From a virus (taxonomy: Duplodnaviria > Heunggongvirae > Uroviricota > Caudoviricetes): DNA of 64,000 nt. The DNA is taken from positions 22,224 through 86,223 of the IMG/VR virus record IMGVR_UViG_3300022468_000772; one strand, written 5' to 3'. Under the pieces are notes generated by a model. The model saw only the letters and a program-made list of their open reading frames with translations. It was not told the origin of the DNA and searched no databases. The translations under genes and the position numbers were made by a program. Shown piece by piece: positions 19,925 to 45,758 of the stretch (within the stretch, counting starts at the first letter, position 1; each line of letters starts with the position of its first letter).

Positions 19925-21292
19925 ATGCCAATCGAAGACACATCAAACTCGTATGAATATAAACTAAAACAAGCTGGCCTAGCAGAGCCGCTATCTACAT
20001 ACTTGGCTGACCCGTATGATGAAGATCGATTGGCTGCAGGGTTTCCTGCATTTAACTTTGATTCTAATGGTGGTGTTTCTGGTTTAAGATCGGTAGATGA
20101 TACTTCCATTAGATTCAATTCAATTTTTGGTAGTGGTTGGAATAGAGTTTTTAGTGGCCCACCCGCTGCAGCAACTGCGTATTCTTTCTGCAATCAAATC
20201 CCATCACGACCAAAATTTGTTGGTGTCCAACTCGGGTTTTTAAATTTGGGGGCTACACCATATACCGTATCTGGATGTAAAGTTGCTGCCACCCCTACCG
20301 ATGGTAATACTGGTCAGACATTAACATGGTCTGATGCTACATTTGATAGCGGAGTTTCGTCAAGCACTACACCTAAAGTAATTTCTGCAGGTTCTGGTGC
20401 TACAGTTAATGCAATTCCCGGTGGTTTGACTGCAACTGATGTAATTGCAGTCAATTCAGTGGAACGTACTGATATTGTTGGAAATCCATATTTGCTTCAA
20501 GTGAGAACATACATCAGTACGTCATCAAACTTGCATGCATCACAAGCAGGTGGTATCTCTGCATTTAGAACTGCAACTGGTCTTGAGTATGGCTCCACAA
20601 TTTTAGCAGGTGATCAAGTCACTAACCCAACTACAAACGCTATGACTCCAACTGGCGCTGGAACGTGGATTTGCCCAAGTGTAGTTAAATTCTACTATGA
20701 GGCACCAACAATTAATGTTGCAGGAATTGGCGATTCTCTTATGCGGGGCCAAGGTTCAAATTCTGGACACACAAGTGCTGAAGAAATTGCATGTCGCCAA
20801 CTTTCAAGTGCATCAAAAATGTATGCATATTCAAATTTTGGTGTTTCTGGTCAAGGTCTAGCAGCAAGTTTTGCAACAGCACAAGCAGTTTTGAATTCTG
20901 ATGTATTCCGACCACAAGTTTTAGTTTGGAAAGCATTCTCACCAAACGATGCATATACTCAATCAAATTTTGATGCGGCATATCTATACCTATTGAGATT
21001 GATGGATTTATGCAATCAGAAGGGTGTTAAGTTAATTGTTCGGAATGCACAGCGTTGGAATCAGTCAGTAGGTGTAACAGCTTCTATTGAAGTATTCAAT
21101 GCACGAGTTGCTAAATTAGCTGGTCTGAATATCAATGATGATTATGGTATTCTTTCTGCTGGTTCTTCCGATCCAACAAAAAATCTTTTGGCATATAGCG
21201 TGAGTGGTGCAGATGCTCACTTGTCTGATGCAGGGTATACTGCACTATCCCAAAGTATTAGAACATTGATTCAGTCTGTATATCCTGTATAA
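19925..21292 (+). CDS. SGNH/GDSL esterase domain protein
   Basis: GIGDSL (block I Ser), NFGVSGQ, SPND, D-A-H-LSDAGY. Confidence 0.8.
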   Translation: MPIEDTSNSYEYKLKQAGLAEPLSTYLADPYDEDRLAAGFPAFNFDSNGGVSGLRSVDDTSIRFNSIFGSGWNRVFSGPPAAATAYSFCNQIPSRPKFVGVQLGFLNLGATPYTVSGCKVAATPTDGNTGQTLTWSDATFDSGVSSSTTPKVISAGSGATVNAIPGGLTATDVIAVNSVERTDIVGNPYLLQVRTYISTSSNLHASQAGGISAFRTATGLEYGSTILAGDQVTNPTTNAMTPTGAGTWICPSVVKFYYEAPTINVAGIGDSLMRGQGSNSGHTSAEEIACRQLSSASKMYAYSNFGVSGQGLAASFATAQAVLNSDVFRPQVLVWKAFSPNDAYTQSNFDAAYLYLLRLMDLCNQKGVKLIVRNAQRWNQSVGVTASIEVFNARVAKLAGLNINDDYGILSAGSSDPTKNLLAYSVSGADAHLSDAGYTALSQSIRTLIQSVYPV

Positions 21293-21299
21293 ATAACCC

Positions 21300-21845
21300 A
21301 TGACGCAACCCGCAGCATGATAAATCAAAAGAATTAAAGAATAAGGAAAAGAGTACAGGCGTAGCCTTGCCGTAGGCACTTTCTAAGTGTTTCTACTACA
21401 ATGGTTATTACGTCTTGCTAACTTCTACCTATTCTTTAATTCCTGTTTATGTTATGCTGCTTCGAAGAGAGGGTTAGTCTCTAGCTCTTATGATGTTCCG
21501 TATCTCTTGGTGAGCCGTACTGGTCATTCAATCTTATCCAATTATCGACCGAGTTTTTATCGTTAGATTGCTCTAACGCTCAGACTCCATATGTGGTAGT
21601 GCGCTCCACACAACTGAGTTAAAATCATGCCTTTCGGTGGGTCGTGTCTTGTATGCCCAGATGAGACATACTTCCTGCGGGTTGCTAGTGAACAGGTGGT
21701 TGCTTGCTTACCTTCGTTATAATGGATCGCTAATCCATGTTCTTTTACGTCTAACTGAAACAGCAAGTAAAGACGACGACTTTTTTGGTACGCTCCCATC
21801 GTGAGGATAAATAGCAGATTGAGTACCACGAAACCCGCTAAGTTG
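21300..21845. ncRNA. ~550-nt highly structured intergenic element (ncRNA or origin candidate)
   Basis: No credible ORF; many hairpins and long-range complementarity; promoter-like motifs at both ends. Confidence 0.5.
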
Positions 21846-21932
21846 TATTATTTACTGCAACTATTTTTTGTCAAGAAGTCTTGCGTTTGTCTGTAAGATG
21901 CTATACAATGGTCTATTTATCATGAAATTCCT

Positions 21933-22373
21933 ATGCTGAACCACGAACAACTGATGGCTGAATGGGCCAAAGACTCTACTATCGATGAAACCAATCTGAT
22001 GAACGAAATGTATCGTCATCCGATGAAACATAGCAAGTATCTCACGCATCTACAAACTTACAAGGTGAAGCTGCGCCAGATGACCGCTAAATATATGAGT
22101 CTGCGCAGTGACAAGGTTCGGTACTACAACGGTGAAATGCCGAAGTCGGAATTGGCAGAACGGGGATGGCAGCAATATTTGTTTGCTAAACCGTTGAAGG
22201 CTCAGATGGAAGCGTTGCTTGAAGGTGACGCTGATCTGCAAAAGCTGCAGGAACAAACTTTGTATATTGAGACATTGGCACAGTCATGTGAGTCTATTTT
22301 GAAAGACCTTGGGAATCGGTACTACCTATTCAAGAGCATGGTCGAATACCAGAAATTTTTAAGTGGTGCATAA
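21933..22373 (+). CDS. uvsY: Recombination mediator UvsY
   Basis: EWAKDSTID, HSKYL, KVRYYNGE, ADLQKL; upstream of uvsW. Confidence 0.85.
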   Translation: MLNHEQLMAEWAKDSTIDETNLMNEMYRHPMKHSKYLTHLQTYKVKLRQMTAKYMSLRSDKVRYYNGEMPKSELAERGWQQYLFAKPLKAQMEALLEGDADLQKLQEQTLYIETLAQSCESILKDLGNRYYLFKSMVEYQKFLSGA

Positions 22374-45637: not shown

Positions 45638-45758
45638 GCGAGGGTGGCGAAATAGGTAGACGCACTGGACTTTTACAGAATATCTTCCTAAGAGGGTATT
45701 CGATAAAATCCAACGGGGAGTGATCCTCATACGGGTTCGATCCCCGTCCCTCGTACCA
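45638..45758 (+). tRNA. tRNA-Leu-type gene with 32-nt hairpin insert in anticodon loop
   Basis: Acceptor GCGAGGG/CCCTCGT, Leu-type D and variable arms, T arm, CCA; insert at ~45672-45704. Confidence 0.8.

Follow-up and report, generated by a model that had tools for sequence, protein, structure and literature searches.

Noncoding RNAs of the size and complexity described here are rare, and their known jobs are mostly those of ribozymes, ribonucleoprotein cores and guide RNAs; a few large ones (such as GOLLD and ROOL) form RNA-only assemblies of unexplained function. GOLLD, ROOL and OLE form RNA homo-oligomers (PMC12286853). The RNA that we report resembles GOLLD (RF01998), ROOL (RF03087), OLE and raiA in that it spans several hundred nucleotides with many helices and pseudoknots, occurs on phages and other mobile elements, was recognised only through comparative analysis and, like them, has no known function or partner protein. 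It differs from them in lacking any Rfam match, in not lying beside tRNA genes and in being far more narrowly distributed (8 to 9 lineages). A precedent for its location is the T4 replication origin oriF, or ori(uvsY), which spans ~100 bp, combines an A+T-rich unwinding element with a MotA-dependent promoter and involves no sequence-specific RNA; the primer of such an R-loop origin needs no RNA fold (PMC3016281).

The window (the whole stretch of DNA analysed, 64,000 nt) contains a 640-nt gap (21293-21932) between the end of a GDSL-esterase-like gene (21292) and the start of uvsY (21933). An earlier note had described this region as an ORF-free, densely base-paired element and had proposed either a large noncoding RNA or an RNA-primed replication origin. 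The absence of genes was borne out: the longest ORF in the gap, 88 aa on the minus strand, was dropped as a gene because it is missing from the 83%-identical ortholog L003, and the gap holds no conserved ORF. The first of the two proposals gained support, since we found a conserved, covarying, structured RNA of ~540 nt with its own promoter, lying between two complete genes and interrupting neither. We consider it likely that the minus strand of 21303-21840 is a real RNA gene of a new family and not an origin (Table 1). The noncoding RNA gene is self-contained within that interval. Position 21303, where the last of the conserved helices ends, served as the provisional 3' limit; no terminator was found after this helix, and a longer transcript or processing is possible. 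That a transcript is made, where it begins and stops and how abundant it is are all inferred from the sequence. Transcription of the minus strand would read antisense into the esterase-like gene.

Table 1. Features of the uvsY-linked RNA locus, in window coordinates.
Feature	Coordinates	Strand	Details or basis
Noncoding RNA gene, uvsY-linked paralog, ~540 nt	21303..21840	-	core model R1, 174 bits, E = 1e-43; conservation and covariation
Sigma-70-type promoter of the RNA gene	21847..21874	-	-35 TTGACA 21874-21869, 16-nt spacer, -10 AATAAT 21852-21847; 11/12 matches
5' pseudoknot H1/H2	21786..21840	-	H1 21840-21832 with 21820-21812; H2 21828-21823 with 21791-21786
Hairpins H4 and H5	21722..21775	-	H4 21748-52 with 21771-75, inner 21755-57 with 21761-63; H5 21722-27 with 21733-38
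Pseudoknot helix CCUG:CAGG	21674..21696	-	21693-96 with 21674-77; encloses P1 5' strand (21685-21678)
P9, hairpin	21651..21671	-	different sequence in every lineage
P8, hairpin	21629..21638	-	GAAA tetraloop (21635-21632); covarying stem
P6 enclosing P7	21579..21618	-	P6 21579-83 with 21614-18; P7 21592-96 with 21606-10
P5a, hairpin with 7-bp stem	21561..21578	-	minus-strand GCAA tetraloop 21571-21568
Most conserved single-stranded junction	21542..21561	-	plus-strand TTATCGACNGAGTTTTTATC; includes P5 3' strand 21546-50, pairing with 21640-44
P4, three-part hairpin	21490..21527	-	invariant AGUAC 21521-21517 opposite GGAA 21499-21496
P3, hairpin	21466..21482	-	variable loop
P2 and long extension	21313..21459	-	P2 21313-22 with 21450-59; outer pairs covary among own1, own2 and L008 (by eye)
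P1 3' strand	21305..21312	-	pairs with 21678-21685; closes ~380-nt 3' domain
uvsY	21933..22373	+	Pfam UvsY, E = 4e-22; divergent neighbour, outside the RNA

The family is absent from Rfam. With Rfam 15 covariance models, the search that the earlier note had suggested, the whole window gave only tRNAs at the gathering score, and at E values up to 10 the region gave only chance matches to eukaryotic microRNA and snoRNA models; neither GOLLD, ROOL, OLE, raiA or HEARO nor any other Rfam 15 family was matched. ARAGORN found no tRNA or tmRNA in 21293-21932, a blastn comparison of the gap with 50,697 GenBank phage records returned no match, and the literature that we searched held nothing resembling this knotted RNA family. 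Two large ribozymes with pseudoknotted cores, group I introns and RNase P RNA, are of similar size and share its GNRA tetraloops, its pseudoknots, its conserved unpaired junctions and the long range of its closing helices, but the RNA differs from them in having no match to RF00028, RF00010 or RF00011, in interrupting no gene and in not pairing its 5' and 3' ends together. A group I intron was rejected because the 8-mer CACAGACT, which we take to resemble the R element of these introns, is on the wrong strand, the intron model RF00028 gives no match and the element lies between complete genes. Reading of the sequence revealed none of the conserved regions of RNase P.

The genome of this uncultured T4-like phage (198 kb) carries two paralogs of this RNA: the uvsY-linked copy in the window (own1) and a second copy outside it, between gp55 and gp4-like genes (own2). 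Members of the family, which spans 8 to 9 lineages, were found in uncultured phages of the T4-like type, on one contig of a Polaromonas MAG and on two short contigs from metagenomes; L003 also adjoins uvsY, and the further members are L007/L009, L008, L010, L102 and L131/L125. L102 gives no more than a hint of freshwater Betaproteobacteria as hosts. Related IMG/VR records are 3300043433, 3300042988, 3300047480, 3300047552 and 3300046097. The score of the uvsY-linked copy with core model R1 (Table 1) compares with 100 to 171 bits in the other members. The usual site of the family is the gp55/gp4 gap and not uvsY, and a complete 178-kb relative has a single copy in that gap and none at uvsY. Members also occur on bacterial-type contigs, and the four different gene contexts seen (gp55/gp4, uvsY, L010 and the bacterial-type contigs) indicate that the RNA is autonomous. 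In 80 T4-like phages at a greater distance, R1 gave no credible match at the gp55 locus (best E = 0.02), and it added nothing among the other 150 genomes sampled from the family to which the L102-carrying MAG belongs. A first pattern scan of metagenomes found nothing, and looser patterns gave only L102, L131 and L125; the contigs encoding the L131 neighbour gene are all under 4 kb.

The fold consists of ~15 helices, with a double pseudoknot at the 5' end and a further pseudoknot around the helix that closes the 3' domain, and at least three pseudoknots are supported by covariation. In the 5' knot, the 3' strand of H1 sits inside the H2 loop, and changes on both sides were found in all nine H1 pairs and in three of the six H2 pairs. 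In the gp55-linked members the next element is H3 (CCUA paired to UAGG), the third of the interleaved helices; the uvsY-linked copy has a local hairpin (21794-96 with 21805-07) in its place. Downstream, H4 and H5 are separated by a conserved A-rich linker, and H5 is formed by ATGGAT/ATCCAT here, by TAGGG/CCCTA in L003 and by other sequences in every other lineage. The sequence of P1 (8 to 9 bp) is a different one in this genome's own RNA, L008, L009, L010 and L102, with complementarity kept each time. The CCUG:CAGG helix is 100% paired and becomes CCGG:CCGG in L009, a change on both sides. P1, CCUG:CAGG and H1/H2 are all present in the uvsY-linked copy. Within the P2 extension lie two small triloop hairpins (21358-66 and 21369-77) and a perfect stem of 13 bp (21331-43/21430-42); the extension varies in length and is nearly missing in the paralog.

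The conserved core of the family is present here as well, namely, P4 with AGUAC/GGAA, the junction TTATCGACNGAGTTTT, P5, P5a, P6/P7 with CAGACTCC...AACTG, and P8. The final pair of P5 varies among lineages between C-G, A-U and U-A. The P5a loop is GCAA in own1, L003, L008, L102 and L131 and GUAA in L009, and without minus-strand G-U pairs the P5a stems of L003, L008 and L102 would be incomplete. The P8 loop is identical in seven lineages and differs in L131. An invariant GGAGU in the internal loop between P6 and P7 may form a further pseudoknot with ACUC (21551-54), a pairing that is itself invariant. In P4, the invariant AGUAC faces GGAA beside C-G pairs, an arrangement that we take to be the loop-E consensus and that, on the minus strand, looks like the signature of a sarcin-ricin/loop-E (bulged-G) module. 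The likeness to rRNA is confined to this local module: a mimic of the ribosomal sarcin-ricin loop was rejected because the GAGA tetraloop is absent, a longer helix standing in its place. Dimerisation or kissing through the palindrome CUUCGAAG was also dropped, as the palindrome occurs in only four lineages and has no consistent partner.

The pairings listed in the earlier note were all found, including the 13-bp perfect stem of the long hairpin, the complementarity of GCAACCCG (21305-12) to CGGGTTGC (21678-85), CGTTAG/CTAACG at 21561, CTCAG/CTGAG around TGTGG/CCACA, ATGGAT/ATCCAT at 21722 and GGTAC/GTACC, and most of these helices covary in relatives. The tests of covariation used seven-lineage alignments, 500 shuffles scored by five measures, and slid controls. 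In the 5' knot, 91% of cells were paired and 15 of the 25 pairs showed changes on both sides; in the core, 96% of cells were paired and 15 of the 26 pairs showed such changes. None of the 500 shuffles reached any of the five measures for the 5' knot or four of the five for the core (21/500 did so for further pair types), although these controls overstate significance, the 8 to 9 lineages being few and related to one another. In slid controls the share of paired cells did not exceed 41% for the 5' knot and 42% for the core. Between the uvsY-linked copy and L003, 10.5% of paired positions had changed compared with 18% of unpaired positions, and six pairs were fully compensated and three half compensated. 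These differences indicate that the uvsY-linked copy is itself under selection.

The earlier note had placed a late promoter, TATAAATA, at 21288 pointing in from the left and a TTGACA-N16-AATAAT promoter at ~21874 pointing in from the right, and of these only the right-hand, minus-strand promoter is credible. It predicts a transcription start at ~21840, and equivalent minus-strand promoters (10 to 11 of 12 matches) occur at the same relative site in five lineages (own1, own2, L003, L008 and L009); judging from promoter coordinates and sequences, the predicted start lies 0 to 5 nt before H1 in own1, own2 and L009. The left-hand sequence is present but is not evidence of a late promoter, as it occurs at chance frequency (4 in the window versus 3.07 expected) and shares bases with the stop codon of the gene to its left; we dropped it. 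A late transcript running from TATAAATA towards uvsY, with the plus strand as the functional RNA, would account for two positions in P2 of own1 and L008 whose G-U pairing is restricted to the plus strand, for a plus-strand G-U in P8 of own1 and L003 and for a lower minimum free energy on the plus strand in five of seven lineages. This energy difference vanishes against shuffles, however, TATAAATA is missing at that place in other lineages, and no conserved plus-strand promoter was found in own1, own2, L003, L008 or L009. The tally of G-U pairs also favours the minus strand, with 11 pairs possible only there versus 3 only on the plus strand (P5a, P7, P8 and P9; symmetric scoring) and, in the 5' domain, 10 minus-strand G-U pairs versus 1 A-C. 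Watson-Crick-only symmetric folding gave no decisive separation (1x1 mismatch counts, 8 G-U versus 5 A-C), the outer helix of P4 mixes G-U and A-C, and folding energies are modestly unusual on either strand (z about -3) and do not separate the two. The GAAA and GCAA/GUAA tetraloops and the AGUAC/GGAA module exist on the minus strand only. Reading of the RNA from the minus strand is thus supported by the conserved promoter, the G-U bias, the GNRA loops and the AGUAC/GGAA module, and we regard a plus-strand RNA as quite improbable.

An element that acts on the DNA itself, such as a homing-endonuclease target, a recombination site or a packaging signal, could explain why the helices are largely Watson-Crick on both strands and why the element's direct neighbour in L003 is an ORF that carries a GIY...YIG-like motif and is flanked by a 34-nt repeat of the end of the element. 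The strand bias of the G-U pairs speaks against such an element, and pseudoknots, tetraloops, invariant single-stranded junctions and a dedicated promoter have no role in duplex DNA, so we give this explanation hardly any credence. The RNA could instead act in cis, as a giant structured 5' leader controlling gp55 or, at this locus, as an antisense RNA directed at the late genes upstream: in the gp55-linked copies, the RNA and gp55 share a strand, with the RNA upstream and no intervening terminator, and the uvsY-linked transcript has the antisense direction noted above. But the interval between the RNA and the gp55 start codon holds a near-consensus promoter for gp55 itself, conservation ends at the last helix, and the downstream gene differs in the four contexts, being convergent in L010, with no same-strand gene here. 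Control in cis is therefore improbable.

The second proposal of the earlier note, an RNA-primed origin at uvsY, found no support: there is no unwinding element, a complete relative lacks the uvsY copy and the fold is conserved. As at T4 oriF, a promoter beside uvsY, here a strong one, fires into a gene-free, noncoding stretch, where a transcript that stays hybridised to the DNA might prime the leading strand; this promoter is of the sigma-70 early type and not a MotA-box middle promoter, and one of the T4 origins, oriE, seems to rely on an early promoter (PMC3016281). The paralog, moreover, lies 2.5 kb from the main minus-to-plus strand switch of the genome and a broad GC-skew minimum. We dropped this skew signal, because skew only follows gene orientation, and the skew shows no inflection at the uvsY-linked copy. 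Where oriF has an unwinding element, this locus has 540 nt of conserved fold in the opposite orientation, its conserved promoter pointing away from the divergent uvsY, and the family is mostly not at uvsY. No A+T-rich unwinding element lies downstream of the start (GC content of 43% over the first 100 nt and 47% over the following 100, versus 40.7% for the genome), and the lowest-GC 50-mer of the gap (28%) is only at the 5th percentile of the window and 430 nt from the start. R-loop formation in T4 is independent of specific sequence (PMC3016281), whereas here a precise fold covaries, and members of the family are found on bacterial-type contigs too. An R-loop origin like oriF is thus very improbable. 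A gene-free, hairpin-rich gap beside uvsY is not thereby an oriF-like origin, a tempting annotation that the uncatalogued RNA family corrects.

We propose that the RNA gene works as follows. Host RNA polymerase would start at the near-consensus sigma-70 promoter, so that the RNA would be an early product and its transcript would open directly with H1. Two linked domains would then fold: a 5' domain of the interleaved H1/H2 (with H3 in the other subfamily), H4 and H5, and a 3' domain closed by the long-range P1, whose 5' strand would be trapped within the CCUG:CAGG pseudoknot. The 3' domain would contain P2 to P9, with two GNRA tetraloops, the loop-E/sarcin-ricin-type module and invariant single-stranded junctions. 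The uvsY-linked copy would be a duplicate of the gp4/gp55 copy of related phages, its fold still under selection. Mobile elements would express a trans-acting folded RNA at once on cell entry. Its putative function as a protein-binding scaffold, decoy or ribonucleoprotein in host takeover or counter-defence is our leading guess, though we would not count on it; a putative ribozyme seems unlikely, and a putative self-assembling RNA-only particle like ROOL or GOLLD is more doubtful still.

This knotted RNA lies in the best-studied phage lineage, with a clear early promoter and two diverged copies in one genome, and it is small enough for in vitro transcription, so that its structure, oligomeric state, catalysis and protein partners are directly testable. 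We raise, tentatively, the idea that it may be a large RNA of a new kind, either catalytic, as a class of ribozyme, or self-assembling, as an RNA-only particle, which T4-like phages and integrative elements would make within the first minutes of entry in order to disable some host system or turn it to their own use. If that were true, the two paralogs of this genome would be specialised variants.

The source record of the window, a 198,204-bp IMG/VR virus judged complete, is a distant T4-like phage whose UvsW shares at most 42% identity with that of any GenBank phage, the nearest being a freshwater Synechococcus phage. A gap of 640 nt separates a GDSL-esterase-like gene (Pfam; ends at 21292) from uvsY (starts at 21933). 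It holds no ORF longer than 88 aa, and its 88-aa ORF is missing from the ortholog in the related phage L003 (83% identical). All hairpins and the long-range pairing that an earlier note had described here were found in place. The Rfam search proposed in that note gave no match to the gap in Rfam 15, and neither ARAGORN nor blastn against GenBank phages matched it.

Covariation among homologs, also proposed in the earlier note, showed that compensatory change keeps a fold in both the 5′ domain and the core. Across the seven lineages aligned for the 5′ domain (helices H1, H2, H3, and CCUG:CAGG), 91% of cells were paired and 15 of 25 pairs changed on both sides; none of 500 shuffles reached any measure, and slid controls were at most 41% paired. 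The model-based alignment of the core was 96% paired, with both-sided change in 15 of 26 pairs (0 of 500 shuffles reached four of five measures; 21 of 500 reached that for further pair types). The long-range pairing of GCAACCCGCAG with CTGCGGGTTGC corresponds to helix P1, whose sequence is different in each of five lineages and whose strands pair in every case, and in P5a, P7, P9, and H5 the sequence is replaced in nearly every lineage. Between the window copy and L003, 10.5% of paired positions changed versus 18% of unpaired ones, and six pairs were fully compensated; the window copy is hence not a decaying duplicate.

Folding energy left the strand undecided (similar z-scores for plus and minus). 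Four independent lines of evidence indicate that the RNA is very probably read from the minus strand. First, five lineages carry a minus-strand promoter, TTGACA-N16/17-TAnnnT (10 to 11 of 12 matches), just beyond the conserved part, with the predicted start 0 to 5 nt ahead of H1 in the window copy, its paralog, and phage L009. Second, in a tally of well-defined hairpins that scored G-U and A-C alike, against bias, 11 pairs were G-U only on the minus strand versus 3 on the plus strand; the 5′ domain in minus orientation had 10 G-U versus 1 A-C. Third, on the minus strand the P8 loop is GAAA in seven lineages, on a covarying stem, and the P5a cap is GCAA or GUAA in six. Fourth, P4 has an invariant AGUAC facing GGAA on the minus strand only, which we take to be the loop-E/sarcin-ricin consensus. 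The exceptions, which suit the plus strand better, are the outer P4 pairs and two positions of P2 in the window copy and phage L008. On the minus strand, these two P2 positions are A-C oppositions, at identical places in both copies, and adjoin the conserved UUAUCAUC; the site may be a non-canonical motif instead of a plain helix.

Features of the RNA gene (in RNA orientation, 5′ to 3′) and of related loci
Feature	Position	Strand	Remarks
Promoter	21874-21847	minus	
H1/H2 pseudoknot	5′ end of RNA		H1, H2, remaining H1 strand interleaved
H3	after H1/H2		gp55-linked subfamily; local hairpin instead in window copy
H4, A-rich linker, H5			in this order
CCUG, P1 5′ strand, CAGG			pseudoknot trapping P1
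P9	after CCUG:CAGG, ahead of P5		
P5			encloses P8 (GAAA loop), P6/P7, P5a (GCAA loop)
Invariant junction, P4, P3			P4 with loop-E module
P2 and variable extension	P2: 21313-21322 with 21450-21459		long hairpin of the earlier note
P1 3′ strand			last conserved part
Back-to-back promoters	21875-21932; L003 2746-2786		RNA and uvsY
118-nt tRNA call	45638-45755		
gp55-linked paralog	G000:C1:~175515-175987 (= L002 1434-1905)	minus	outside window
GIY...YIG-like ORF	L003 1364-1861	plus	165 aa; region L003 1193-2169
Repeat flanking ORF pair	L003 1279-1312, 2169-2202		34 nt, 79% identical
RNA and recombinase	L102 4400-6400		
RNA in ORF-poor stretch	L131 1158-3061		L125 alike

The same genome holds exactly two copies; the second (~73% identical, at 175.5 kb) lies between gp55, the late-sigma gene, and a gene of the gp4-like head-closure type. 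Further members came from pattern scans and then from R1, a covariance model built on the core: an ortholog adjoining uvsY in L003, gp55-linked copies in L008 and L009/L007, a copy in L010, one on a 7-kb Polaromonas MAG contig (L102), and one represented by two short contigs from metagenomes (L131 and L125). In a complete relative of 178 kb there is a single copy, at gp55, and none at uvsY; R1 found no credible match in 80 more distant T4-like gp55 loci (best E = 0.02) or in the 150 other genomes sampled from the MAG's family. This distribution indicates that the uvsY-linked copy is a derived duplicate in a narrow clade. The paralogs differ in complementary ways: in the gp55-linked one, most of the P2 extension is missing and P5a has no GNRA cap, and the H3 pseudoknot that it keeps is lost from the uvsY-linked copy.

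The RNA-primed origin at uvsY that the earlier note had considered is very unlikely. T4 oriF and oriG (~100 bp) combine a MotA-dependent promoter with an A+T-rich unwinding element, and R loops form there irrespective of specific sequence (PMC3016281); in contrast, GC here is 43 to 47% in the 200 nt after the start, above the genome's 40.7%. The promoter is directed away from uvsY, the family lies mostly elsewhere, selection maintains a fold, and cumulative GC skew tracks gene orientation with no signal at 43.5 kb. Nor did the late promoter assigned to TATAAATA at 21288 hold up: this T4 consensus occurs only four times in the 64-kb window, the level expected by chance, and the phage's late promoters probably follow a different consensus.

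The RNA and uvsY promoters stand back to back. In L003 their −35 boxes are 7 nt apart and the plus-strand one reads TTGACT-17-TACAAT; within the window, the promoter scan listed no plus-strand promoter for uvsY. Shared polymerase access or supercoiling could couple the two genes. No intrinsic terminator follows the P1 3′ strand, and in gp55-linked copies the RNA is followed by the gp55 promoter.

The RNA gene occurs in four different neighborhoods, the phage copies adjoining gp55/gp4 or uvsY. In L102 it points the same way as a small (225-aa) resolvase-type serine recombinase gene that begins ~470 nt downstream, and both stand where high-GC bacterial genes give way to a low-GC stretch of an otherwise high-GC contig; the locus is an integrated element or else an assembly chimera. 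Its RNA contains a 15-nt segment, UGACGUUGACCGGCC, repeated twice. In L131 the RNA lies within a 1.7-kb stretch without a plausible ORF and adjoins a residual C-terminal piece of moaC, a 72-aa ORF of which only the last ~30 residues match MoaC; on these short contigs, the border of an element inserted in moaC would fit. In L003 the GIY...YIG-like ORF (no Pfam match; PHROG matches all of unknown function) is wedged at the RNA 3′ end and followed by a second, overlapping ORF. The pair, between a tail-gene end and the RNA, is flanked by a repeat of the RNA's last helices and looks like a free-standing homing-endonuclease cassette inserted in or beside the RNA gene. Elsewhere in the window, a tRNA called by Rfam (41.6 bits) and unreported by ARAGORN directly precedes tRNA-Cys and presumably has a long insert.

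The family has no Rfam match, no cultured-phage carrier, and no description in the literature searched; among published catalogues of structured RNAs from phages the largest, built on an older IMG/VR release, lists candidates of only 29 to 151 nt (PMC10690425). We ranked functions by the modules that the RNA contains (tetraloops, loop-E, knotted 5′ end). A protein-binding scaffold or decoy leads, at somewhat less than an even chance; a ribozyme is unlikely, an RNA-only assembly like ROOL or GOLLD (PMC12286853) slightly more so, and a cis-regulatory or antisense role the least probable. The RNA and its promoter would form an autonomous cassette that mobile elements carry and the host polymerase fires, which suggests a trans-acting, early function.
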